Source: a virus
Taxonomy: Duplodnaviria; Caudoviricetes
Direction: 5' to 3' (one strand)
Virus record (IMG/VR): IMGVR_UViG_3300033069_001852
Length of the DNA: 64,000 nt
The notes under the pieces were generated by a model. It was not told the origin of the DNA. It was given only the letters and a program-made list of their open reading frames with translations, and ran no database searches. The number at the start of each line of letters is the position of its first letter. Position 1 is the stretch's first letter. Positions 29,516 to 49,764 of the stretch are shown here, in pieces. The position numbers and the translations under genes were made by a program.

Positions 29516-32500
29516 ATGCCAATACAAGAAGGTGGAACATTTCAGCCGCACTCAAGGATCGTGAGTCCTGGAGTTTTTACGCGTGAATTTGATCAGAGCG
29601 GGATCGCCCAAGGCGTCCAAGATATCGGCGGAGTCGTCGTTGCCCCATTTCCTAAAGGTCCGGGGTTTTCTCCGACTCTTGTCCGTGATGTTGCCACACT
29701 GGAAGACCGCTTCGGCGTTGCCGACGGCACATTCTATGGCCCATATACGGCTAAGGAATACCTTTTGGAGCGGGGCTTGGTCACGGTTTGTCGCGTGGGC
29801 GCACTAACTGGCTACCACCAGAAGTATCCTTTTGTCCTTTATGCGATAAAAGGTGAATATGACCGCAATATTGACAGCGGTTCTCTGTCTGTATCCGGTT
29901 CTGTTCTGTCGCTTTCCGATAGTCTGATCGCATCTTCTTCCGCCAACCTCAGCAATGTTTCTTCTGGAATTCTCTGGAATACAACCACGACGACGACCAG
30001 TGCGTCTTTTGTTTTTGTAACTGGATCGGTCCAAGTTAAAGGCGTTCCTTTTACTGCCACTTTTGTAAATGCGGCAGGTACTGGAACCAGTCCGTTCGGT
30101 ACGGCGGCTAGTGGTTCATTGTATTACAATGGTCAGTCCGCCAATATCGGTTATCTATCGGCTACGACCGTAACCAATATTCTAATTTCAGTTAGCACCA
30201 GCAGTTTGAGTGGTAGTTCCGCTACGACCAGCAGTTTGATGAAGTATTTGTTGACCAATAGTGCGTTTTCTTCATCCTGGAATGGAACGGTCACCTTAGC
30301 TAGTGGTTCAGATCCCTTCGATTATTCCGTCCAGAATCCTGTGTATTTGACTCAGGGCGGTATTCAAGCTATTTCTGGTGCTTGTGCGTCATATATTTAC
30401 GGCATCAGCGGAATCGTTTCGGGAGAATTCGGTGCGTATACCGGAACCTTTACTCCTAATGGCACGCCGACTTTTGATCCCTGTGCCAATGTTTGGACTT
30501 CCGGTAGTGCGGATTACCGCGTTTTGGCGGTGTTGGGTGATACCCAGTATGGTGGTATTAACAGCAGCTTGGAAGCTCCTGGATTCAGTGGTTCTTCGAT
30601 GACGACTGCGAGCCGGATTCAGAATTCTGTAACGATTCCAACAACTTACGATATCACTTTGAAATCCACCGATAGTTCCGCGACCATTGGCACGTATCGT
30701 GTTGATCTGGACGCGGCAAGCACCAAGTATATTTCCAATGTGTTTAGCGCCGATGCCACCGGCGGAGACCCTGACAAACAGGTCGCCGGTCAGAAAATTG
30801 AAGCCGCTTATTTGTATAAGTTCTTCGCCAATAGTTTGGCTACGGTTGCGGCAAACAAGAAAGATTGGTTCATTTCCGGAAGTGTTCTTCCTGATTATAC
30901 CTTCGCGGGTGAAGCGCTTAAATTGGTGGATGATTATTCACTAAATTTAACGGAGGGCGATTCCCAATTCGCATTGACCAATGCGTCCACTCCGTGGGTC
31001 GTATCCCAGAAAATTGCTCCGTGGCAGACGGGCAGCGCCGAAACGCGGTTCCGTTTGTTCAAAGTTCACACCTTAAGCGATGGTACCAACACTAATACCG
31101 ATTACAAGATTGAAATATCCAACGTCAAGTTGTCCGGCACCGTCGCGGGTAGTGATTGGGGTTCTTTCACCCTCACGGTTCGCAAATACAGCGACACTGA
31201 TAAGAAGCCGGTGATTTTGGAATCTTTCCGTAATTGTAATCTTGATCCAACATCCGCAAATTATGTTGCTCGGCGGATTGGTAATGCTTATCGTTACATC
31301 GATTTCAATGGCAAAGTTCTTGAATTCGGCGATTTTAGCAACAACAGCCGTCACATTCGTATTGAAATGAATGGTGATGTTCTCCCGACCACCGCGGTGC
31401 CTTATGGTTTTGAAGCGTATTCCACGCCCATTAACAGTTCCGCGGGTCGTTGGATTCCGACGATGAAATACACCAAGGCTTCCGTGTATAGCGGCAATCC
31501 TGGAAAATATCCGTCCGGTATAACTTTTGATGACGCTCCGACCGGCGCCGATTCTGAATTGGCGAGCCTGTATCCCACCAGCTCGACTGGAATTGGGGCA
31601 TCAGATGACAATAAGCAATACTTCGCTCCGTTGCCTGAATTTGGGGCTTATGGTAGCATTGGAGGTAATTCCGTGTTCGCCTTGGATGAAGTTATCACGG
31701 CCAACGGCGTCGGTTTCGGCAGTTTGTTAAGCGCCGCCTTAAGCGGTTCGGTTCCGGCTGAATATGATAGCGTCAACGAAAACACTTACACAAAGATGCG
31801 TAAGTTTGTATTCGGTTTCCAAGGTGGCTTTGATGGTCAGAGCCCCGCAATTCCGATTAATGTCGGCGCCGACATCACTGCGGGTAACACCCAGGGTTTG
31901 AATTGTGTCAATAGCACCTCCGCCGGGTCCATTGCTTACAAACAATGTATTGGCGCTTTGAGCAATGCGGATGAATTTGATATCAATCTGATTGTTGCTC
32001 CTGGCATTATTCACCAATATCACAGCTATCTCACCAATTTGATCGTTGATATGTGTGAGCAGCGTGGTGATTGTTTCTACATTATGGATATTTACGCGGA
32101 TGATGGTAACCCCAGCGCCGGACAAATTTCGGAAGTAGTAAGCTACGCCGCGCAGTTTGATACCAATTACGCCGCTGCTTATTATCCGTGGGTCAAGATT
32201 CTTGACACCAATATCAATCAAATCGTAACGGTGCCGCCTTCCGTGGTGATGCCAGCCGTATACGCCGCGAATGATAAAGTGGCGGCCCCTTGGTTCGCGC
32301 CGGCCGGTTTGAACCGGGGTGGAATTTCCAACGCCGTCGGCGTGACGGATCGGACGACGCATTCGGAACGGGATGATCTGTATGAGGGTAAGGTTAACCC
32401 CATTGCTATCTTCCCTGGAGAAGGCGTAGCTATCTGGGGTCAGAAGACTCTTCAGGACGCAGCGTCAGCAACGGACCGGATTAATGTGCGCCGGCTGTTA

Positions 32501-32794
32501 ATTGACCTCAAAAAGTTCTTCGCTTCCACTTCGAAGTATCTTTTGTTTGAACAGAATACCTCCGCGACCCGGAATAAATTCCTGGCTATTGTCAATCCTT
32601 ATATGGATTCCGTTAAACAACGGTCTGGTTTGTATAACTTCTTCGTCAAGATGGATGAGGAAACCAATACGGCAGATATCATTGATGAAAACATCTTGTA
32701 TGGTAAGATCTATATTCAACCGACCAAAACGGTAGAATTCATCGTCTTGGACTTCAATATTTTGGCTAGTGGAGCGGTTTTTTCTAGCATTTAA
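29516..32794 (+). CDS. Contractile tail sheath protein (gp18-like)
   Basis: SPGVFTREFD, KGP, YAAAYYPWV, PWFAPAGLNRG, VNPI, WGQKTLQ, RINVRRL, LFEQN, IQPTKTVEFI. Confidence 0.97.
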   Translation: MPIQEGGTFQPHSRIVSPGVFTREFDQSGIAQGVQDIGGVVVAPFPKGPGFSPTLVRDVATLEDRFGVADGTFYGPYTAKEYLLERGLVTVCRVGALTGYHQKYPFVLYAIKGEYDRNIDSGSLSVSGSVLSLSDSLIASSSANLSNVSSGILWNTTTTTTSASFVFVTGSVQVKGVPFTATFVNAAGTGTSPFGTAASGSLYYNGQSANIGYLSATTVTNILISVSTSSLSGSSATTSSLMKYLLTNSAFSSSWNGTVTLASGSDPFDYSVQNPVYLTQGGIQAISGACASYIYGISGIVSGEFGAYTGTFTPNGTPTFDPCANVWTSGSADYRVLAVLGDTQYGGINSSLEAPGFSGSSMTTASRIQNSVTIPTTYDITLKSTDSSATIGTYRVDLDAASTKYISNVFSADATGGDPDKQVAGQKIEAAYLYKFFANSLATVAANKKDWFISGSVLPDYTFAGEALKLVDDYSLNLTEGDSQFALTNASTPWVVSQKIAPWQTGSAETRFRLFKVHTLSDGTNTNTDYKIEISNVKLSGTVAGSDWGSFTLTVRKYSDTDKKPVILESFRNCNLDPTSANYVARRIGNAYRYIDFNGKVLEFGDFSNNSRHIRIEMNGDVLPTTAVPYGFEAYSTPINSSAGRWIPTMKYTKASVYSGNPGKYPSGITFDDAPTGADSELASLYPTSSTGIGASDDNKQYFAPLPEFGAYGSIGGNSVFALDEVITANGVGFGSLLSAALSGSVPAEYDSVNENTYTKMRKFVFGFQGGFDGQSPAIPINVGADITAGNTQGLNCVNSTSAGSIAYKQCIGALSNADEFDINLIVAPGIIHQYHSYLTNLIVDMCEQRGDCFYIMDIYADDGNPSAGQISEVVSYAAQFDTNYAAAYYPWVKILDTNINQIVTVPPSVVMPAVYAANDKVAAPWFAPAGLNRGGISNAVGVTDRTTHSERDDLYEGKVNPIAIFPGEGVAIWGQKTLQDAASATDRINVRRLLIDLKKFFASTSKYLLFEQNTSATRNKFLAIVNPYMDSVKQRSGLYNFFVKMDEETNTADIIDENILYGKIYIQPTKTVEFIVLDFNILASGAVFSSI

Positions 32795-40075: not shown

Positions 40076-40567
40076 ATGACCGAACTAATTAATCCAAATG
40101 AGATATTCTGGACTGCCTTCGAACCAAAAGTGAAGAACAGGTTCATTATGTATCTTGACGGTGTCCCCGCTTTCACTATTCGTAAGACTGACCGCCCAAA
40201 GGTACAGAGCGAAAAGAAAGCTCTGGACCACATCAACACCCAGCGTTATTACAAGGGCAAGACCACTTGGCAAGATATGACGATGGAACTTTACGACCCT
40301 ATTGTCCCGTCCGCCGCGCAAGCCGTGATGGAATGGATTCGGCTTTCTCACGAAAGCGTAACGGGCCGCGATGGTTATCAGGACTTCTACAAGAAGGATG
40401 TCACCATCAACGTTTTGGGTCCCGTCGGTGATAAAGTGGAAGAGTGGGTTCTCAAAGGGGCCTTCCCGATTGCCGCAGACTTTCAAGATGTTGATTGGCA
40501 GGACAGCGGCGATCCACTGGGCATTACGGTCACCCTCAGTATTGACTACGCAATTCTACAATACTGA
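40076..40567 (+). CDS. Tail tube protein (gp19-like)
   Basis: EPKVKNRF, KGKTTW, LYDPI, VMEW, YKKD, EEWVLKGAFP, LSIDYA. Confidence 0.9.
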   Translation: MTELINPNEIFWTAFEPKVKNRFIMYLDGVPAFTIRKTDRPKVQSEKKALDHINTQRYYKGKTTWQDMTMELYDPIVPSAAQAVMEWIRLSHESVTGRDGYQDFYKKDVTINVLGPVGDKVEEWVLKGAFPIAADFQDVDWQDSGDPLGITVTLSIDYAILQY

Positions 40568-40682: not shown

Positions 40683-41693
40683 ATGTCCATTATTAGATTA
40701 AAACCGATAGTTGAAGCTACCTTGTCTGAAAAAACTGCTTTTGGCAGTCGCTCTGGCCAGAAATCCCTTCGCCGGTTTGAGGTTAAATCGGAAGTTTTCC
40801 AACGGCTTTTAAATGGACCTTTCAAAAACTATTCCCACCGTGAGCTACCGGAATATGAAAAAATATATCGGCTCGCTGAAAAACGCCGTAGCAAATCCAG
40901 AGGCGCTCCTGTGGAATATGAAATCATTGTGCCCCGTAAATCAGAACGCAGCTCAAAGGATTCCTGGAATACCTACACGGTATTGTTGAGTAAATTGCCT
41001 AGTTGGGCCGGCTGGCCCAAGCGTTCCCATTCCGTGATATTTTTCGTTGGGTCGATTAAGACGGATACCCAGTATGGGAGTCATATTTATAGGCTTATCC
41101 CCAAGAACGGGGCGAAAATTGCGGTGTCCACTCACCACGACATTTTAGAGCCGCCCGCCTGGCCTCACATGCGCCAACTCTTGTCCCGGAATGGTCAATT
41201 CATTGATATCACCGTGCTTTGTCAATTACTTGGTCGCATGATCAGTTGGGCGCAGGTGGCTAAAAAATATAAAGACAAAGCTCCGAACGTGTTCGGCAGC
41301 GACTTAAATGACCTTAAATCTCAAAATTTAAATAATTGGGTTATGAATGTGCGGTTAGAAAATTATGCTAAACTCATAAAACTTTTGGATGCTTCCCTAA
41401 ACCAAAAAACCCTGCCCCAAATTAAAAACGCCTTGGACAGCGCTTTTACCAACTCCCCGTTGGGGGAATGGCAAAAAAATAGATTCTTGGAGTATAAGGA
41501 AACTTTTGAATTTTATGCTAATTTGGTGGAGAAATATGGCGGCTGGGAAAACTTATTGAGTGAAGCGTTGGATCCGGTTAAAAATGGTTTCGAACTGATG
41601 ACGGCAGAGAATGTCCGCCCCAACCATAATAAATCGTGTGAGGCCTGGACCGATGACGCGTGTTTGATGAAATATGACAAGGGGAATTTTTAA
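40683..41693 (+). CDS. Paralog 1 of a tandem family, putative ART fold
   Basis: IYR, LPSWAGWPKRSHS, YG, PKNGAKI, NGF..EAWTD. Leader MSIIRLKPIVE. Confidence 0.6.
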   Translation: MSIIRLKPIVEATLSEKTAFGSRSGQKSLRRFEVKSEVFQRLLNGPFKNYSHRELPEYEKIYRLAEKRRSKSRGAPVEYEIIVPRKSERSSKDSWNTYTVLLSKLPSWAGWPKRSHSVIFFVGSIKTDTQYGSHIYRLIPKNGAKIAVSTHHDILEPPAWPHMRQLLSRNGQFIDITVLCQLLGRMISWAQVAKKYKDKAPNVFGSDLNDLKSQNLNNWVMNVRLENYAKLIKLLDASLNQKTLPQIKNALDSAFTNSPLGEWQKNRFLEYKETFEFYANLVEKYGGWENLLSEALDPVKNGFELMTAENVRPNHNKSCEAWTDDACLMKYDKGNF

Positions 41694-42568
41694 TGTTAAA
41701 ACTGTCCAACATTTTGACGGAGACGACCAGACGGAGCCAGAAGATTCGCAAACCCATCTTTATGAATGCTTTGGTCCGGGGTCAATTCTCTTCTGCTTAT
41801 AACAAAATGTTGGAGGGACGGAGGATCTATCGGGGCATAACCGGTAGTGCGGAATGGCCTTATTGGATTGTCAAACCAGGCTCCGCGGAGCGCAAATCAC
41901 GCAATACTTCCAATTTTTATACCGGCTTGATTGATAACTTACCAAGTTGGAAAAACTACCCCAAACGCAGCCGTAGTATCATATGTTCTACCGGACGTGG
42001 TGGAGCAGCTTCGTTTGGTAATGTTCTGGATGTCTTTCCAAAAAATGGAGCCAAAATTGGCATTTGTTCAGCGGAAGATTTCTGGTTATCCTTCCCGGCC
42101 ACCCACACGCGGCTTGATCTTCAGGACATGTCCTATTTCAACGCGTATTTCATTTCTATTTTTTACCAAGCCTCTCACAAGCTTTCGCATCTAGCCTCCG
42201 AACTGACGGATAAAACTTATCCCGCATTTATCAAGCTTGCGAATGAGTTGATTAACAAAGAAAAATACATTGAAACGATTAACATTCAGAGGTCGGTAGA
42301 CCGTTTACCTTACGGCGTATCTTCGGATATGTTGGTGAAGGATGTCCGGTTTAATTTTAACAACGATTGGGAAAAATACTTTGATGAATTGTTGAATCCT
42401 GAAATTAACGGCTTTGTGATTACTACGATTGAAGATTACCAAATACCAACCGATTCCGCCAGCGACATCGAAATTTGGACAGACGCACCTTCACTAATGA
42501 TTAGCCATCACCATCAACAGGAATTATTTTCCTCCGATCTTGCGGCTCGGCCTGGAGGCACGATATGA
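41693..42568 (+). CDS. Paralog 2 of a tandem family, putative ART fold
   Basis: IYRG, LPSWKNYPKRSRSIICST, PKNGAKI, EIWTD. Leader MLKLSNILTE. Confidence 0.6.
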   Translation: MLKLSNILTETTRRSQKIRKPIFMNALVRGQFSSAYNKMLEGRRIYRGITGSAEWPYWIVKPGSAERKSRNTSNFYTGLIDNLPSWKNYPKRSRSIICSTGRGGAASFGNVLDVFPKNGAKIGICSAEDFWLSFPATHTRLDLQDMSYFNAYFISIFYQASHKLSHLASELTDKTYPAFIKLANELINKEKYIETINIQRSVDRLPYGVSSDMLVKDVRFNFNNDWEKYFDELLNPEINGFVITTIEDYQIPTDSASDIEIWTDAPSLMISHHHQQELFSSDLAARPGGTI

Positions 42569-43542
42569 TAAAACTCTCTTACTTGTTAATGGAAGATGAG
42601 AATGAGCGTGATCCCAGCTTGAGGAAGTCTCGGGAAATCCCGGTCACTGCCGCCATTAACATCTTACGCACCCAGTGTACGGAAGCGGTAAAACTATTCA
42701 GTGAGCACCCAGCGGGAACCGGTTTATACCGTGGTTATCGGAGTGATAATTATTGTTTGGAAATTGACCCAACAACCCGGGAACGAACGGGCAGCCGCAA
42801 CTTATATAACGCATTAACTTCCATTTTACCGTCCTGGTCAGAATTCCCCCAGCGTAGCCATTCCGTGATGTTCAGTCCGACTCCGGAAATCGCCAAGGTT
42901 TATGGTAAAATTTATTGGTTATTTCCTTTTGACCAATCGTCGATTGCGCATTGTAATAACCGTGATTGTTGGTATTCTTTTGAATACGCTACCAAGAGGC
43001 TCGGTAGGGGGATTAGCAGTATTGATTATGTCATGGATTTATTTTCAATACTGATCGCATATTCAGTGATTTCAACACGGAAAGATATTGATGGGAATTA
43101 TTATTTCAATACTAAAGTGGGCAAGCATTTCACCAAACGTGAATATACGGTTTCAAATGCGCAAGCCTTGTTGAAAGAGATGAAACGTATTACTCCCGCA
43201 ATTTTAAAGCTTTGTCAGAAAGAAATTGACAAACCAAAAAAGGATTTTGAAATCGTCGGCATATGCGGGGATATCCTTAAAAATTTTAAAGGGGATTGGG
43301 TGGAATACTTCGATTTACTATTAAGTCCGGAAAACAATAAAATAGGTTTGACAACTATTTCCGAAACCGTGAAGTTTCCCCGGGTGGAAATGTGGACGAC
43401 CGGAAAATGTATTATGGTTAACCCCCAGACCGATTTTAACTTTTACAACCTTGGCGACACTTCAATCTGCGGCACATTTTTTAAACATAATATTCAGGTG
43501 GCGAAAACCGCCGGTGCCATCCACCTAATGGGGATTCCATGA
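42565..43542 (+). CDS. Paralog 3 of a tandem family, putative ART fold
   Basis: LYRG, LPSWSEFPQRSHSVMFS, YG, EMWTT. Leader MIKLSYLLME. Confidence 0.6.
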   Translation: MIKLSYLLMEDENERDPSLRKSREIPVTAAINILRTQCTEAVKLFSEHPAGTGLYRGYRSDNYCLEIDPTTRERTGSRNLYNALTSILPSWSEFPQRSHSVMFSPTPEIAKVYGKIYWLFPFDQSSIAHCNNRDCWYSFEYATKRLGRGISSIDYVMDLFSILIAYSVISTRKDIDGNYYFNTKVGKHFTKREYTVSNAQALLKEMKRITPAILKLCQKEIDKPKKDFEIVGICGDILKNFKGDWVEYFDLLLSPENNKIGLTTISETVKFPRVEMWTTGKCIMVNPQTDFNFYNLGDTSICGTFFKHNIQVAKTAGAIHLMGIP

Positions 43543-44366
43543 TAAAACTTTCTCAACTATTGAATGAGTCGGATAATGTGGCAGGCGGCCCCCGGACAAA
43601 ACAGATCGCCAGTGCCGCAGCAGGACAGAAACTTCTGATCCATAAAGCTTCAGCCGCTCTAGAAGCTGCCCGCCGGGATTGTGGAATTTACCGTGGGGTG
43701 AAAACCCTACCCAATGAATATGCGGCCTACCGTTTTGTCCGGCCCGCTAAAGCTTATCGCATGGCTAAAAACACAACCAATTTTACCAATGCGGTGTTGG
43801 ATGTTATTCCAAGCTGGAAGTCTTGGCCCAAGCGCAGTCAGAGCATCGTCTGTTCCAATGCGCCCGACCGCGCCGGCGGCTATGGTATAACCTTTGGGGT
43901 TTTTCCTTTTAACGGAGCTAAGATCGGAATCAGTTCCGATGCGGATTTCTGGATGTCTTTCGAAAGGTTAAATGATCGTTTGGGTTGGGATGTCGCCACC
44001 TTCAACGATCAGATGGCCATTGCCCTAGAGGGGATAGGGATATATGAAGATTTGGAGCGGATACTACCGCGGGGAATACAAAAAATCTTTAATCACATTG
44101 ACAGCAAATTTATATTGTACCCCAATTTTTTCGAAAACCTTTTTGCTTCAAGTTCCTATCGCAGCCGTGACCCTATATTAAAGGACATGGCCAAATATAT
44201 GACTGAAGGCGCAGAGAAATATTTTGACGAATTACTAAATCCTGAGGCGAACGGTTTTAAATTAGTCACCATTGAAGAATACGATTTGAGTCAGTATCCA
44301 GCAATGGAGGTCTGGACCGATAGTCCGGCTCTATTAATTGATCGCAAGGTGGTGGCTTTACCTTAA
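43539..44366 (+). CDS. Paralog 4 of a tandem family, putative ART fold
   Basis: IYRG, IPSWKSWPKRSQSIVCS, YG, PFNGAKI, EVWTD. Leader MIKLSQLLNE. Confidence 0.6.
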   Translation: MIKLSQLLNESDNVAGGPRTKQIASAAAGQKLLIHKASAALEAARRDCGIYRGVKTLPNEYAAYRFVRPAKAYRMAKNTTNFTNAVLDVIPSWKSWPKRSQSIVCSNAPDRAGGYGITFGVFPFNGAKIGISSDADFWMSFERLNDRLGWDVATFNDQMAIALEGIGIYEDLERILPRGIQKIFNHIDSKFILYPNFFENLFASSSYRSRDPILKDMAKYMTEGAEKYFDELLNPEANGFKLVTIEEYDLSQYPAMEVWTDSPALLIDRKVVALP

Positions 44367-44385
44367 TATTTGTATATTTATGTCT

Positions 44386-45108
44386 ATGGTAAAACTAGCG
44401 GAATTGGTGATGAATGAGTCGGTTTATGACAAGGGACTATTTAAAGCGGTCTTTTTCGGCGGGCTTCCCGGAGCCGGCAAGTCCTACACCATACAAAATA
44501 TCTCTGATGGCAATATTGAACCCCGGATCGTCAATTTTGACAAGTATGCGGAATTTCTGGGCAAACAATTGGACATCAAAGATGTCGGAGGTTATGTGGA
44601 TAAGACCTTCATTGACCGGACTAAGCGCATGACGATCAATCAACTTTCCCTGTATGTTAATGGAATGTTGCCCTTGTTCGTGGATAGTACAAGCAATAAG
44701 ATTAACCGTGCAGTTTATCGGGATGGTTTGTTGAAAATGTTTGGTTATGACACCGCTATGGTTTGGGTCAATACTTCACTGGAGACTGCGATTAAACGAA
44801 TTCAAAAACGGGATCGTTCAGTCCCTATTCCTTTTGTCAAGGCGGTATTCAAGAATATGGAAGAGAATAAAGCCTACTACAAAAGCCATTTTGAAATGTT
44901 CGTTGAGGTTAATAATGACGAAGGCGAATTGACCGATAAAGTCATTACCGACGCATACAAAAAAGTATCGGGATTTTTTAAAACGGAAGTGGGTAACCCC
45001 ACCGGCCGCCGCAATTACCAAGCGGCTAAAGCATCTTCCGGCTATTTGGTGCCTCAGGTTTACCGTGATATAAACAAAATCAAGAGCAAGTTAGTCAATT
45101 GGTATTGA
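44386..45108 (+). CDS. P-loop kinase (Zeta/AAA_33-like)
   Basis: GGLPGAGKS, LFVDST, WVNTSLETAIKRIQKRDRSVP. Start placed at MVKLAELVMNE, just after the motif at 44374-44381. Confidence 0.8.
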   Translation: MVKLAELVMNESVYDKGLFKAVFFGGLPGAGKSYTIQNISDGNIEPRIVNFDKYAEFLGKQLDIKDVGGYVDKTFIDRTKRMTINQLSLYVNGMLPLFVDSTSNKINRAVYRDGLLKMFGYDTAMVWVNTSLETAIKRIQKRDRSVPIPFVKAVFKNMEENKAYYKSHFEMFVEVNNDEGELTDKVITDAYKKVSGFFKTEVGNPTGRRNYQAAKASSGYLVPQVYRDINKIKSKLVNWY

Positions 45109-45122
45109 TATTTATACATTAC

Positions 45123-45434
45123 ATGAATTTTGCGCAATTAAAAACGATGATCAAAGCAATCCTCAATGAAGCAATTGATGGGTTTGTTTTTCACGATCAT
45201 CCCGAAGCCGCAACGGGCGATGGCTTCAACGTCCCAACGGATGTGAAATATAATAGCATTTATCTAGGCACGCTGGTTTCCAAGCCGGATGGTTATGAAA
45301 TTGCGTATCTGGACACACCTAAAGGCAAACAAAAAATTTCCAGCAATAAACAGAATAAATTTAAATCCAAGAACGCCGCGGCGGAAAAACTTCATGAGAT
45401 TTGGCGTTTGGTCAGAAACAAAGGACTATTTTAA
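45123..45434 (+). CDS. Hypothetical protein with leader
   Basis: MNFAQLKTMIKAILNE; ATATTTAT at 45108-45115. Confidence 0.7.
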   Translation: MNFAQLKTMIKAILNEAIDGFVFHDHPEAATGDGFNVPTDVKYNSIYLGTLVSKPDGYEIAYLDTPKGKQKISSNKQNKFKSKNAAAEKLHEIWRLVRNKGLF

Positions 45435-45435
45435 T

Positions 45436-46359
45436 ATGAATACAATTGGTATCCTCCCCGGGCGTTTTCAACCGCCGCATCGGGGGCACTTGGAAGCTTA
45501 CAAACACGCCGTTCAGATCGTGGGTAAGAACAACGCATATGTTGCGACTTCTGACAAAATCGATCCGATTAAATCACCTTTGAATTTCAGAGAGAAGCAA
45601 CAGATTTGGACGCGGCATGGGGTGCCAATTGATAAAGTTGTAAAGGTTACCAATCCCTATAAGTCGGAAGAAATCACGCATAAATTCAATCCCAAACAAA
45701 CGGCGGCAATTTTCTTTCTTTCCCAGAAAGACGCCGCTAGGATTCCATTTAAAAACGCCGCGGGGCAACCCTCATATTTTCAACCCTATAAAGGTAATGA
45801 AGATAAACTTCAACCTATTTCCGAACACGGTTATATCGCCGTAACTCCGACTTTTAAAATTGACGGTAAAAACATCTCCGGAACGGTAGTGCGTGAAGGC
45901 CTGGGATCGGCTAAATACAGCGAATCGCAAAAACGCAAACTCTTCCAATGGATCTTTGGTTGGTTTGATATGGCTCTGTTTGAATTGTTGGTGGATAAAT
46001 TCACCGCCGCGGAACAGGATAAAAACAAACCCGTCACTCCGATTAATGAGGTCCACCAAAGATTGAAAGAATATCTGAAGGGAATCATCCGAGAATTAAC
46101 CTTTTCTGTGCCTAGTGTTGAGCCCGATGTTTCCGCCGATCCTAAAAAACCCACAACCATAACCGACCCCACGGCCGAAAAAGATCCAGATCAGGAACGA
46201 AAAGATCGGGAAATGTCACGGCGAAAATTGGAATTGATAAAAAAGAAACGTCAATTCCAAGATAGTCAAAAGAACTGGCGCACAAAGGGGGTTGAACAGG
46301 ACAAACGCGATATCCGGGCCACCGATGCGGAAATCGCTGATTTGCGCTCCCAGATATAA
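45436..46359 (+). CDS. HxGH (cytidylyltransferase-like) nucleotidyltransferase
   Basis: PGRFQPPHRGH, SPLNF, ISGTVVR. Start moved to the ATG at 45436. Confidence 0.8.
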   Translation: MNTIGILPGRFQPPHRGHLEAYKHAVQIVGKNNAYVATSDKIDPIKSPLNFREKQQIWTRHGVPIDKVVKVTNPYKSEEITHKFNPKQTAAIFFLSQKDAARIPFKNAAGQPSYFQPYKGNEDKLQPISEHGYIAVTPTFKIDGKNISGTVVREGLGSAKYSESQKRKLFQWIFGWFDMALFELLVDKFTAAEQDKNKPVTPINEVHQRLKEYLKGIIRELTFSVPSVEPDVSADPKKPTTITDPTAEKDPDQERKDREMSRRKLELIKKKRQFQDSQKNWRTKGVEQDKRDIRATDAEIADLRSQI

Positions 46360-46417: not shown

Positions 46418-47251
46418 ATGAGCGAAGGCAAAATCCCCCTACGCCGAACTTCAGGTCCAACTGATCCGGCCCAAGCTAAAGAACAACCACGGTACCCGAC
46501 CGATACCATTTCCCTTCCCACTAAGGGCTGGTTTTATCCCGAAAATACCCCCCTGGCCACGGGCGAGGTAGAGATCAAGCAAATGACTGCGCGGGAAGAG
46601 GATATCCTTGCCAATCAGGATTTAATCCGCCGTGGTAAAGTTCTAGATAAACTACTCCAATCACTATTGATTGATAAGAATATAAATCCTGAGGACATTT
46701 TAATTCCCGATAAGAATGCCATCTTTATTGCTATTCGCCGCTTTGCTTATGGCGACAACTATTCCGTCAATGTCACTTGCCCCCAATGTGGCGTGAAATC
46801 CCGGGTTGATATCAATTTGGCCGAATTAAAGGATAAAGAAATTGATCTTTCTCTTTTACCACGTTGGAAGAATAATTTTACATTTGTGCTTCCAAAAGCG
46901 GGAACGGTATTGACATACAAACTATTAAATCAGAAGGATGAGGACGATATTGAGCGAGAAATCACTGCATTACGTAAAGTGAATAAGGAAGCTTCCAGTG
47001 AAGTCACCACCCGCTTGAAATACGTTATCACCGCGATTGATGGTAATCCGGACAAAGATCGGATTAGAAAATTTGTGGATGAAGAATTTTTAGCCGTGGA
47101 TGCTCGGGCGTTCAGAAATTCTATGAAGGCTAACACCCCGGACATTGACATGCAATTTGATTTCAAATGTTCCAATTCCAGATGCGAACACGAAAGGAGG
47201 ATGGATATCCCTGTGGGAGCCTCCTTTCTATGGATTGACATTGAGTCCTGA
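46418..47251 (+). CDS. Baseplate hub/tail assembly chaperone (T4 gp26-like)
   Basis: LPTKG..YP, MTAREEDIL, CPQC and C...C; immediately upstream of the tape measure. Confidence 0.75.
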   Translation: MSEGKIPLRRTSGPTDPAQAKEQPRYPTDTISLPTKGWFYPENTPLATGEVEIKQMTAREEDILANQDLIRRGKVLDKLLQSLLIDKNINPEDILIPDKNAIFIAIRRFAYGDNYSVNVTCPQCGVKSRVDINLAELKDKEIDLSLLPRWKNNFTFVLPKAGTVLTYKLLNQKDEDDIEREITALRKVNKEASSEVTTRLKYVITAIDGNPDKDRIRKFVDEEFLAVDARAFRNSMKANTPDIDMQFDFKCSNSRCEHERRMDIPVGASFLWIDIES

Positions 47252-47462
47252 AGATAGGATCCGGGTTCACACGGATATTCATCAACTTTGTTATTATGGC
47301 GGCGGAGGTTTTACTCCGGGGGAAATCTATGAAATGCCTATTTTTCTTCGTTACTTCCATTTAAAACAATTATCCAAAACCAAAGAAGCCGAAGTCGCTT
47401 CACAACAGGGTGGCGAAGAGGCTAAACCAACGCCCAAGAAAATCCAACCAAAACCCTTCTAA
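47226..47462 (+). CDS. Probable frameshift extension of the chaperone (+1 frame)
   Basis: Open frame FYGLTLSPEDR..IHQLCYYGGGGF..IYEMPIFLR overlapping the chaperone end, with no ATG near the chaperone stop. Confidence 0.6.
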   Translation, partial: FYGLTLSPEDRIRVHTDIHQLCYYGGGGFTPGEIYEMPIFLRYFHLKQLSKTKEAEVASQQGGEEAKPTPKKIQPKPF

Positions 47463-47502: not shown

Positions 47503-49764
47503 ATGGCAACACTAGACCCTAAATCATTAGAGGCCGCTAAAGATCACGCTAAAGAAATTGAAAAACTTCTTGGCTCCAGCGCCGAAAGCGTGGATGTCCT
47601 AAATGAGAATTTCAACCTCACCGTTGAATTGTTGAAAAAAATGCGGGACACGCTCGGCGACTCCGATGAGGAGTTAATTAAATTCGGAAATAATATCCTT
47701 TCCAATCTCACCAAGGAAACCACGATTGAAGGCAAAATTTTAGCCACGAAACAAGCCCAGTCAGATATTTTACGTCAGATGGTAAAATCAGGAATAAGTT
47801 TAGTGGACAGCGGCGGCGAATTGTCAATTCAAGGAAAATTTCTTTCTTCCATCATGCAGCAGGCGGCTAAGGCGCAAGCGGAACAAAGTTCTAATTTTAT
47901 CCGCCAGGTATTTTTCAGTGAACGCTTTAATCGGAATTATGCGCAAGCCTTCGGGATCGCAAAAAAACTTCCCAGTCATATGACTGCCGCCGGCAATGCG
48001 ATGGCAAAATTACCCATCATCGGCAGTATTACATCCAAGGTTCTGACCGGTCTTGGCTCTAAACTAGCGCTTATGGGAGTTCCGGTCATCGGTTGGATAA
48101 CCACCGCGATTCTTTTAGCGGTTGATCTTGGTAAGGAGATTCTTGAAGTTTTTAAACAAGCCGACGAAGCGGGGACTAAATTCCGGATGACGGTGGGTTT
48201 TATTCGAAAAAATACCGTGGCAATTGACGAAGACGCTCGTAGGATCGCCATTGATTTCGCAACGGTCGGAGCCACTTTTGATCTGGCCTATAATAGCGTA
48301 ACGGCCATTATGACGACGATGGGATCGTTGGTTGGTTATTCTAAAGGCTTGGTGGAAACCGGAACTATTTTTGCCGCCCAACTTGGAGTTTCCGCGGAAA
48401 AGAGCATGGTCACCCTGAAAGCGTTTGCGCAAATTTCCCGCTCCACTATGGCCGCCCAGCGCAATATGTTGGGGTTTGTCGCACGCTTATCACAAGCCGG
48501 CGGCACCAATTTAAATGAAGTGATGAGCGACATCGCAGAATTTTCCCAATCCAATTACCGTTTCATGAAGGGCACCACATCAGAATTGATCAAAGCGACG
48601 GTGGAAGCCCGTCGGATGGGAACTTCTCTGGCCAGCGTCGGTAAATCTGCCAATTCATTATTAAATTTCACCCAAAGCATCAATGACGAAATGGAAGCCA
48701 GTGTTTTATTGGGTCGGTCAATTGATCTTCAGAGGGCTAGGAGCCTATCCTATGCCGGCGACCTGGCGGGCCTAAACAAGGAAATTTTACGCCTTGCTCA
48801 GGCTGCGGATTTCGAAAACATGGATCCGTTTCAAATGCAGGCCTTTGCTAAAGCCGTCGGCCTGGCCGAATCAGAAATCAGCAAAATGTTGGTCGCTTCC
48901 CGCGACCAAGAAGAACAAAATCGTTTGCTAGCTAAAGACCCCTCCTTGAAAGCTCGGGTGGAAGAATATCGTAAAATATTAGCCGCGTCAGAGAAGACCA
49001 CGAAAAATCTTGGTCAACAATACCTCCTAGACCTCCAACGGGAAGCGAATCAAACTCGCATGTTAGCCATCCAACAACAATGGACGGCGTTAACCCAAAA
49101 AATTGCGGAAGAATGGTTGCCGGTGATTGACACAATGTTGAAAGCTATCGTCCCCGTTATCAATGTTATCTCCAAGGCTATCCAGATCGCGATGAAACCA
49201 ATAACTGATCTGGCTAAGATCTATAGTGGAATTTCTAAATTGATGAATACCCAGAATCCGGAGGACTATTCGAAGGGGTGGGAATTAGCGGCCGATGGGG
49301 TAAAACACCATTTACTAGGTTCAATGACGGGCGTTTATGATTTTATCGCTAATCTGTTTAAAGCAAATTCCCCACACCGTTTGGGGCAGATGTATGTAGA
49401 TGGTTTTACCAAAGCAGCACCCTTGGTGGAAAAATCACTTACTACTTCGATGACCCGAGCCGCAGCAAGTACCGCGGATATTTTGAGTGGTATGGGATTG
49501 GAGCCGGTCGGAGATAATGCCCCGCCAGGTATGGGTACAATTGCCCCCATCGCGCAACGACCGAAAAGTGTTCAGGACTTTTCCAATATGGCTACGGATA
49601 GCACAATCATGAAAGTTGTGGATTCCATTAATCGTTTGCGAGAAGATATGCTTAGTGGTAAATTGGGAGCCAATGTTCGACTCGATAGTCAAATCTTAGC
49701 GGAGTCTACCAAACGGGCTACTGATTTTAGAGGTGGTTATGGCACAAACAACGCTCGCGCTTAA
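47503..49764 (+). CDS. Tape measure protein
   Basis: 753 aa, Ala-rich and helical; INDEMEASVLLGRSIDLQRAR; lies between the chaperone and baseplate genes. Confidence 0.75.
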   Translation: MATLDPKSLEAAKDHAKEIEKLLGSSAESVDVLNENFNLTVELLKKMRDTLGDSDEELIKFGNNILSNLTKETTIEGKILATKQAQSDILRQMVKSGISLVDSGGELSIQGKFLSSIMQQAAKAQAEQSSNFIRQVFFSERFNRNYAQAFGIAKKLPSHMTAAGNAMAKLPIIGSITSKVLTGLGSKLALMGVPVIGWITTAILLAVDLGKEILEVFKQADEAGTKFRMTVGFIRKNTVAIDEDARRIAIDFATVGATFDLAYNSVTAIMTTMGSLVGYSKGLVETGTIFAAQLGVSAEKSMVTLKAFAQISRSTMAAQRNMLGFVARLSQAGGTNLNEVMSDIAEFSQSNYRFMKGTTSELIKATVEARRMGTSLASVGKSANSLLNFTQSINDEMEASVLLGRSIDLQRARSLSYAGDLAGLNKEILRLAQAADFENMDPFQMQAFAKAVGLAESEISKMLVASRDQEEQNRLLAKDPSLKARVEEYRKILAASEKTTKNLGQQYLLDLQREANQTRMLAIQQQWTALTQKIAEEWLPVIDTMLKAIVPVINVISKAIQIAMKPITDLAKIYSGISKLMNTQNPEDYSKGWELAADGVKHHLLGSMTGVYDFIANLFKANSPHRLGQMYVDGFTKAAPLVEKSLTTSMTRAAASTADILSGMGLEPVGDNAPPGMGTIAPIAQRPKSVQDFSNMATDSTIMKVVDSINRLREDMLSGKLGANVRLDSQILAESTKRATDFRGGYGTNNARA

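Follow-up and report, generated by a model that had tools for sequence, protein, structure and literature searches.

A putative programmed +1 ribosomal frameshift at a UUU_C site in a T4 gp26/gp51-family tail assembly chaperone gene

Introduction

How is a reading frame translated that overlaps the end of a tail assembly chaperone gene in the +1 register, lies just upstream of the tape measure gene, and lacks a conserved start codon? The question is raised by a stretch of phage DNA of 64,000 nucleotides (nt), analyzed as one strand and referred to here as the window, in which the gene of interest lies within positions 46418-47462. Our reading is that the gene at 46418-47251 encodes a chaperone for tail (hub/tube) assembly in a large myovirus related to T4. 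Frameshifts in chaperone genes that precede a tape measure gene are a familiar kind of event, with a likely +1 case in the halovirus HSTV-2 (PMC5009743), and are described as conserved in long-tailed phages "except T4" (PMC5009743, reviewing Xu, Hendrix and Duda 2004). The original prediction for the locus was an atypical +1 recoding of the lambda G/GT type, in which the phenylalanine transfer RNA (tRNA-Phe) slips from UUU to UUC. Here, we report a comparative analysis according to which the gene very probably carries a programmed +1 ribosomal frameshift at UUU_C (47225-47228), which would yield a long form of 347 amino acids (aa). This is the best supported reading of the sequence comparisons, and its basis is a conserved +1 extension with a UUU_Y site (Y being a pyrimidine), the lack of a conserved start, the freezing of dual-coding codons, and natural in-frame long forms. 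The slip itself, its efficiency, the product ratio, and the binding partners are inferred.

Reading frames at the locus

The open reading frames (ORFs) and the site are arranged as follows.

46418-47251, plus strand: 0-frame ORF of the short form, 277 aa, C-terminus ...PVGASFLWIDIES*; tail/hub assembly chaperone of the T4 gp26/gp51 family (PF12322)
47127-47251, plus strand: overlap in which the 0 and +1 frames are both open in the window, by frame reading
47222-47230, plus strand: putative shift cassette UCC_UUU_CUA, with UUU at 47225-47227, UUC at 47226-47228, and UAU at 47229-47231 as the next codon
47229-47462, plus strand: +1-frame extension, 77 codons and TAA, residues 271-347 of the predicted 347-aa long form

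In the 0 frame, the site reads TCC (47222-47224), TTT (47225-47227), and CTA (47228-47230), and the 277-aa product, with the C-terminal sequence ...DIPVGASFLWIDIES*, ends at a TGA stop at 47249-47251. The +1 frame opens at 47127 after a stop at 47124-47126, reads TTC (47226) TAT GGA TTG through the site, and stays open to the TAA at 47460-47462. All coordinates of the original prediction for TCC TTT CTA, the 0-frame stop, and the +1 frame were confirmed by this frame reading, and translation reproduced its 347-aa fusion with the junction ...IPVGASF/YGLTLSPEDR. The predicted junction peptide of the fusion is ...GASFYGLTLSPEDR, and its predicted tryptic junction peptide is MDIPVGASFYGLTLSPEDR. 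The extension encoded in the window comprises a conserved helical domain (...H.DI..LCYYGGGGF...IYEMPIFLRYF...) followed by a basic low-complexity tail. Readthrough of the stop codon was considered and rejected, as a second 0-frame stop, TAG, lies two codons past the TGA. No tRNA genes were found in the window.

Conservation of the extension

With the predicted fusion as query, 1166 relatives were found. All of the best 120 are 220-291 aa long and cover 62-80% of the fusion; none of these 120 is full length in a single frame. The related loci that were assembled for comparison comprise 13 viral loci, 80 metagenome loci, and two cultured phages (95 in total, 40-60% protein identity). Two of them run off their contigs, leaving 93 scorable. 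All 95 and the window together give 96 sequences, and further counts below are based on 92 distinct sequences. The +1 extension is kept in all 93 scorable loci, where it runs for 59-102 codons past the 0-frame stop in 92 and for 34 codons in the remaining one, while the -1 frame is mostly closed within 40 codons. Conservation of the +1 extension is far beyond chance. An alignment of the 92 distinct extensions shows a protein domain from the junction on (F-[FY]-G-L-T...QIH..[VL].FHGKGG[FY]....VYNMPIWLR.F), after which comes a tail rich in Lys, Glu, and Gln. The sole extension that ends early, in locus L080 (a 2116-nt metagenome contig; L-numbers designate individual loci), stops inside the conserved MPI motif and may represent a broken copy or an assembly error.

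In a single genome, a one-base indel in a homopolymer would look the same as this split, which could then be a sequencing error or the mark of a decaying gene without function. The split recurs, however, in independently assembled loci at the divergence given above, with no single-frame full-length protein among the best 120 homologues, and the C-terminal tail of the short form (F-[FL]-W-P-D...) is itself conserved, also in relatives with two separate genes. On sequence grounds error or decay retains next to no probability, and we consider it already refuted, in practice, by the comparative data.

The proposed shift site and alternative ways of changing frame

An in-frame UUU followed by a pyrimidine is present in 96 of 96 sequences, within an invariant Phe-Phe/Leu motif that is usually followed by Trp. 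The nine nucleotides at the junction occur in seven variants among the 96 sequences: TTTTTTTGG (68), TTTCTATGG (9, the window included), TTTTTTTAC (7), TTTCTTTGG (6), TTTCTATTC (3), TTCTTTTGG (2), and TTTTTTTAT (1). No variant lacks an in-frame UUU with U or C as the next base. The overlap and the slippery Phe codon, for both of which the original prediction looked to homologs, are therefore conserved (extension in 93/93 scorable loci, UUU_Y in 96/96 sequences). In 13 loci only 2 nt separate the stop that opens the +1 frame from the first Phe codon, and in 92 of the 96 sequences the 0-frame stop lies 5-8 codons past that codon, so that the switch of frame is confined to about 17 nt. A T immediately precedes the T run in only 1 of 92 sequences, so that a -1 slip would find no heptamer U_UUU_UUU in phase. 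Slippage by -1 on an X_XXY_YYZ heptamer is also at odds with the extension, which occupies the +1 frame, and with the early closure of the -1 frame.

The same T run could suggest that the change of frame occurs in transcription, with RNA polymerase stuttering on the run and dropping one U or adding two. A run of seven T stands at the junction in 76 of 96 sequences, and A or T runs are known slippage sites (PMC5009743). The window itself has only TTT (TCC TTT CTA), however, and in 20 of 96 sequences the run is broken (TTT CTA, TTT CTT, TTC TTT T) with the extension still kept. Seven T are also short for efficient bacterial slippage, and the near absence of a preceding T indicates a run that is kept short and in phase, not lengthened. 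Transcriptional slippage cannot account for the interrupted variants, the window among them, and is very unlikely. A -2 ribosomal slip, leading to the same frame with one extra residue, has even less in its favor: within TTT TTT T, tRNA-Phe decoding the second UUU could find a match two bases upstream, but neither the window (UCC UUU CUA) nor the other interrupted variants allow good pairing of this kind. The natural long forms described below, moreover, show two and not three hydrophobic residues before G-L, as a +1 junction would give, and a -2 slip appears highly improbable. A +1 slip of tRNA-Phe, in contrast, would account for all seven site variants; in the TTC TTT TGG variant it must take place on the second Phe codon, and the product would still read ...F-F-G-L.

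Across the 0-frame ORFs of the 92 loci, a pyrimidine follows UUU in 24% of cases (163/683) and UUC in 43% (81/187). This low frequency of UUU_Y elsewhere in the genes may reflect avoidance of the shift-prone UUU_Y off the programmed site, or ordinary codon-pair bias.

Start codons and frozen codons

The +1 ORF could be a separate small gene that has a start codon to itself (TTG 47145, 47235, or 47241) or is reached by termination-reinitiation past the UGA at 47249-47251, in which case no fusion would be made. TTG codons are indeed present at these sites, stand-alone genes are called at this position in GenBank for Microcystis phage Mel-JY01 (with a TTG start upstream of the T run), Flavobacterium phage immuto, Bacillus phage HSE3, and Rhodothermus phage RM378, and in 6 of 92 relatives a Shine-Dalgarno sequence and a +1-frame ATG stand 20 nt before the site. 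In the window, the sole start candidates of the +1 frame are TTG 47145, 47157, 47235, and 47241, in agreement with the earlier statement that this frame holds no ATG near the chaperone stop, and none of the four has a Shine-Dalgarno sequence at working distance; ATG 47230 belongs to the third frame, which is closed at 47244. Among the 92 distinct sequences, 39 have no +1-frame start codon upstream of the junction, and 24 have no ATG, GTG, or TTG at all from the upstream stop to 21-25 codons into the extension, that is, before the core of the conserved domain. No start position is conserved, and few of the candidates have a Shine-Dalgarno sequence. For the independent start at TTG 47235, which had been named as an outcome that would speak against a frameshift, the codon is present without a Shine-Dalgarno sequence at working distance.

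Codon choice at the junction further argues against a separate gene. The junction Phe is TTT in 165 of 167 codons, compared with a background of 78.5% (0.785) elsewhere in the same genes (P 3e-15), and the next Pro is CCT in 90 of 90, compared with 38% (0.379) elsewhere (P 1e-38), while at the Pro five codons upstream of the frozen one all four codons are in use. When the sequence is read in the +1 frame, this T of CCT takes the second position of a Leu codon; the +1 frame is therefore under coding selection before the 0-frame stop.

Relatives with an in-frame long form

In a full phmmer scan, the 78-aa extension matched 118 proteins, mostly short stand-alone gene calls. Several others among them, of 303-320 aa, carry the extension domain in frame at the C-terminal end of a PF12322 body, and a further search brought together about 25 such natural single-frame long forms. 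BLASTP alignments of the predicted fusion with two natural long forms cross the junction (expectation value (E) 4e-41 for P0176, and 1e-36). In an AlphaFold model of a natural long form, confidence stays high through the junction (predicted local distance difference test, pLDDT, 90.3); the extension is predicted to have helices at 232-248, 255-259, and 263-296 and, after them, a disordered tail. Both the fused genes and this model are at odds with a separate small gene, which, with the start-codon and codon-choice data above, we regard as improbable.

Seven of the long-form genes were examined together with their surroundings. Each is directly preceded by another gene, which is a complete short-form gene (276-290 aa) in six; in L105 the gene before the long form is a 5'-truncated ORF of 261 aa with a short-form C-terminus. 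A protein of about 950-1080 aa is called downstream in four of the seven loci. Tandem short and long PF12322 genes lie at the following positions.

L097, 4150-5930: tandem short and long PF12322 genes
L098, 4139-5927: tandem short and long PF12322 genes
L102, 3144-4918: tandem short and long PF12322 genes
L103, 1674-3415: tandem short and long PF12322 genes
L104, 1627-3430: tandem short and long PF12322 genes
L105, 1-1720: tandem short and long PF12322 genes

The tandem short and long genes are a gene-duplication answer to the same need. Those short forms of two-gene relatives that were read end in ...F-[FL]-W-P-x-x-x-x*, so that the conserved C-terminal tail of the short form is also found where there is no overlap. 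In the six two-gene short-form genes with DNA sequence, TTC accounts for 8 of 11 Phe codons, CCT is absent, with Pro encoded by CCA, CCC, or CCG, and the +1 frame runs into a stop within 5-21 codons. The slippery codons and CCT are thus relaxed in two-gene relatives, and the freezing of codons is therefore tied to the presence of the overlap. Taken with UUU_Y in 96/96 sequences, the extension in 93/93 loci, and the frozen codons, the natural long forms support the tRNA-Phe slip that the original prediction proposed.

Proposed mechanism

Under the +1 frameshift, most ribosomes would stay in frame and produce the 277-aa short form. A minority would slip one base forward with peptidyl-tRNA-Phe on UUU (47225-47227) while the infrequent CUA codon awaits its tRNA; tRNA-Phe would re-pair with UUC (47226-47228), UAU (47229-47231) would be decoded next, and the +1 frame would be read to 47462. 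CUA makes up 8% of Leu codons in the window (5.9 per 1000), which places it among the two rarest. In most relatives the position is taken by UUU or UGG. What the resulting long form would gain is a helical domain of about 45 aa and a basic tail. If lambda G/GT is a guide, the body common to both forms may bind the tape measure protein, and the extension may recruit another tail component, probably the tube protein. A low efficiency may suffice, because the lambda G:GT ratio is about 30:1 (PMC5009743).

Possible stimulators and points against the frameshift

The sequence AAAGGAGG, which the original prediction placed at 47193-47200, is indeed at that position. Its end is 24 nt before UUU, which is too far for a stimulator of the RF2 type, and it pairs instead with the shift site in a clade-specific stem of nine base pairs (bp):

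47192-47228, plus strand: perfect 9-bp inverted repeat, GAAAGGAGG (47192-47200) and CCTCCTTTC (47220-47228), hairpin of -16 kcal/mol

The shift codon lies within the 3' arm of this stem and the 5' arm is the Shine-Dalgarno sequence; as the complement of a Shine-Dalgarno sequence, the 3' arm resembles the 3' end of 16S ribosomal RNA. Comparable pairing (-9 to -16 kcal/mol) is restricted to the window's own clade, in which the stem could tune the slip.

Several points weigh against a frameshift here. No family-wide stimulator was found, either as an upstream stem or as a downstream fold. RNAalifold gave no consensus for an upstream stem across the family, pairing of the two arms (duplex energy -6.3) was just slightly more favorable than pairing of arms exchanged among loci (-5.8 ± 0.24), and the 60 nt past the site folded no better than shuffled sequences at 92 loci (mean z -0.23; control region -0.47). 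UUU_Y also occurs in frame about 150 times in the large ORFs of the window, and the site alone therefore cannot give high efficiency. TTG 47235 and 47241 stand near the 0-frame stop, so that re-initiation is possible in this one genome. The six relatives with a Shine-Dalgarno sequence and ATG belong here as well; we regard them as incidental, arising from the 0-frame codons of a conserved Glu-Arg-Arg and Asp-Val. Lastly, the constraint of slipperiness and that of +1 coding are not fully separable at the junction.

A further feature was noted upstream of the site. A G-rich patch (GGGG/GGAG) is found 5-8 nt upstream of the shift codon; in the window this is GGGAG (47215-47219), which ends 5 nt before UUU. 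The patch comes from a conserved Gly three codons before the site (position -9 from the first Phe), where GGG or GGA accounts for 42 of 57 Gly codons across the 92 loci.

Identity and predicted fold of the chaperone

The short form matches Pfam PF12322 "T4_baseplate" (E 1.3e-12, 48.4 bits with a cut-off of 24.5), where its residues 47-264 align with positions 10-211 of the 219-position profile. It also matches PHROG 150 "baseplate hub". T4 gp26 (208 aa) and T4 gp51 (249 aa) both match the same family (E 9e-64 and 4e-52), gp51 consisting of the family body (residues 1-201) and 48 C-terminal residues. The two T4 proteins are listed as "hub assembly chaperones" by Leiman et al. 2010 (PMC3004832). 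Judged by its sequence, the gene is a T4 gp26/gp51-family (PF12322) member and not a classical G-family chaperone. What stands of the G/GT-type assignment in the original prediction is the pair of short and long products and the position before the tape measure gene; the sequence family is a different one. Residues C121, C124, C251, C256, and F270 are invariant or near-invariant among 65 sequences, and the C-terminal Phe-Phe motif is also present in T4 gp26, which ends in ...EFFELL*. The extension alone matched no family in Pfam or PHROG.

The AlphaFold (AF2) model of the short form has a pLDDT of 88 and a predicted template modeling score (pTM) of 0.81. Its top three structural matches among 48,161 representative Protein Data Bank (PDB) chains were 3fgx (Z 5.7), 3klu (Z 5.1), and 2ob9 (Z 4.0), all with modest Z; Foldseek found nothing in the PDB at E <= 0.001, with 2ob9 at a probability of 0.47. 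These three structures are named as tail assembly chaperones (PMC9603447). The predicted fold is thus closest to three solved tail assembly chaperones, which is supporting evidence and not proof.

Comparison with known systems

The locus resembles lambda gpG/gpGT in the position of the gene just before the tape measure gene, in short and C-extended products (here predicted) with a common N-terminal body, in a second frame without a conserved start, and in a slippery site that is conserved despite divergence of the protein; the predicted fold, as described above, comes nearest, at modest Z, to the solved chaperones 3fgx, 3klu, and 2ob9. Unlike lambda, in which a -1 slip takes place on an X_XXY_YYZ heptamer, the putative slip here is +1 on UUU_Y, the protein is about twice as long with two CxxC pairs and belongs to PF12322 in place of the G type, and a stimulatory element was not detected.

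The site itself has a parallel in influenza A PA-X. The PA-X +1 site is UCC_UUU_CGU, as the original prediction stated, and changing UCC lowers its efficiency (PMC5009743); UUU_Ynn is a documented +1-prone site in bacteria (PMC5009743). The ribosomal E- and P-site codons UCC UUU are identical in the window, and in both cases a P-site tRNA-Phe would slip onto UUC with an infrequent codon in the A site and with no obvious RNA stimulator. Sites of the same type include the amalgavirus UUU_CGN and the bacterial UUU_Ynn of argI and YopN-TyeA. The differences are that the ribosome here is bacterial and not eukaryotic, that the A-site codon is CUA in the window and UUU or UGG in most relatives, that UCC occurs in 16 of 92 relatives only, and that the roles are unrelated. 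From +1 shifting of the RF2 (prfB) type the locus differs in that the A-site codon is a sense codon and not a stop, and in that AAAGGAGG lies 24 nt from UUU, not 3 nt.

Two other tailed viruses are alike in +1 recoding of structural or assembly genes, with different protein families and shift sites. Listeria phage PSA reportedly has +1 shifts in capsid and tail genes, at a Pro codon next to a stop, in work ascribed to Zimmer et al. in 2003. For the myovirus chaperone of the halovirus HSTV-2, +1 shifting is described as "very likely +1" (PMC5009743).

The layout of the window extends to distant cultured phages, namely HSE3, RM378, immuto, and Mel-JY01. HSE3 reads ...GAG TTC TTT CGT..., giving UUU_CGU as in PA-X, and its 74-aa +1 ORF matches a hidden Markov model (HMM) of the extension (E 1.5e-5). 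RM378 reads TCC TTT TTT TGG and has a 76-aa +1 ORF, which the extension HMM does not detect. In four GenBank records, the extension is covered by a stand-alone hypothetical gene with an arbitrary start, and the frameshift is annotated in none:

L014, 4851-4961: small-gene call at the extension, NC_055915 gp038
L015, 4737-4973: small-gene call at the extension, PP395634 WWT39326
L100, 4252-4422: small-gene call at the extension, MF418016 gp075
L101, 4201-4377: small-gene call at the extension, NC_004735 p030

In cyanophage Syn9 (L107, NC_008296, ~2150-2390), the gp26-like gene shares the family and the C-terminal Phe-Phe motif and ends in GCT TCT TTT TTC GGG TAG. Unlike in the window, its T run is phased as a classical -1 heptamer, U_UUU_UUC, and a 71-aa extension with a similar ...MPWE..IY... 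core lies in the -1 frame. T4 is alike in having PF12322 proteins, a Phe-Phe motif in gp26, and a gp51 made up of the body and 48 more residues, which gives it a short and a long form. It differs in that these are two separate genes on opposite strands, away from the tape measure gene and without an overlap: gp26 keeps Phe-Phe (TTC TTT GAG) without an extension, and the long form is a separate gene, 51. The extension HMM scored -1.1 against the T4 gp51 tail, no better than 2000 shuffled sequences; the alignment is colinear and not significant. With -1 phasing in Syn9, +1 in the family of the window, and no overlap in T4, one motif would therefore serve +1, -1, or no slip, depending on the lineage.

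Implications

We consider it rather likely, with less assurance than for the frameshift itself, that the gp26/gp51 family is the "missing" G/GT system of T4-type phages, with the Phe-Phe motif as an evolutionary switch between +1 shifting (the phage of the window and hundreds of uncultured relatives), -1 shifting (Syn9), and gene duplication (T4 and others). If this is true, T4 is not an exception in kind, as it would make its short and long chaperones from two paralogous genes and its relatives would make theirs from one by recoding. To our knowledge, well-studied bacterial cases of programmed +1 shifting are few, RF2 being the main one. The sites described here would, if real, outnumber any other natural set of programmed +1 sites read by bacterial ribosomes, and more than 90 natural variants of the UUU_Y type would offer a ready series for the study of +1 efficiency. 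Present annotation misses the long form, with a spurious small gene or nothing in its place, as in the four GenBank records above. What T4 gp26 and gp51 do in hub assembly has been unclear for decades (PMC3004832). A literature search, which had most subscription journals outside its reach, found no report of recoding in the gp26/gp51 family. What appears to be new is the involvement of this family, +1 shifting on UUU_Y across hundreds of phages, and the link to the two genes of T4.

Genomic neighborhood

The chaperone gene sits between the tube and tape measure genes in the window.

29516-32794: sheath gene, PHROG 23, E 1e-68
40076-40567, plus strand: tail tube gene, PHROG 4542 tail tube, E 3.5e-23
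47503-49764, plus strand: tape measure gene, 753 aa, BLASTP E 4e-18 to the annotated tape measure of Flavobacterium phage immuto

The tape measure gene lies directly 3' of the chaperone ORF, as had been stated, and in the position that matches the annotated tape measure genes of L014 and L100. Flavobacterium phage immuto, Microcystis phage Mel-JY01, and Bacillus phage HSE3 show the uninterrupted order sheath, tube, chaperone, and tape measure. Tube and chaperone genes are adjacent in relatives, and in the window about 5.8 kilobases of accessory genes (40683-46359) stand between them. Three ORFs of this block (41693-44366) match PHROG 12810, as does the N-terminal part of the ORF at 44338-45108, which also contains an AAA_33 kinase-like domain. 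A cytidylyltransferase-like gene is found in the same accessory block.

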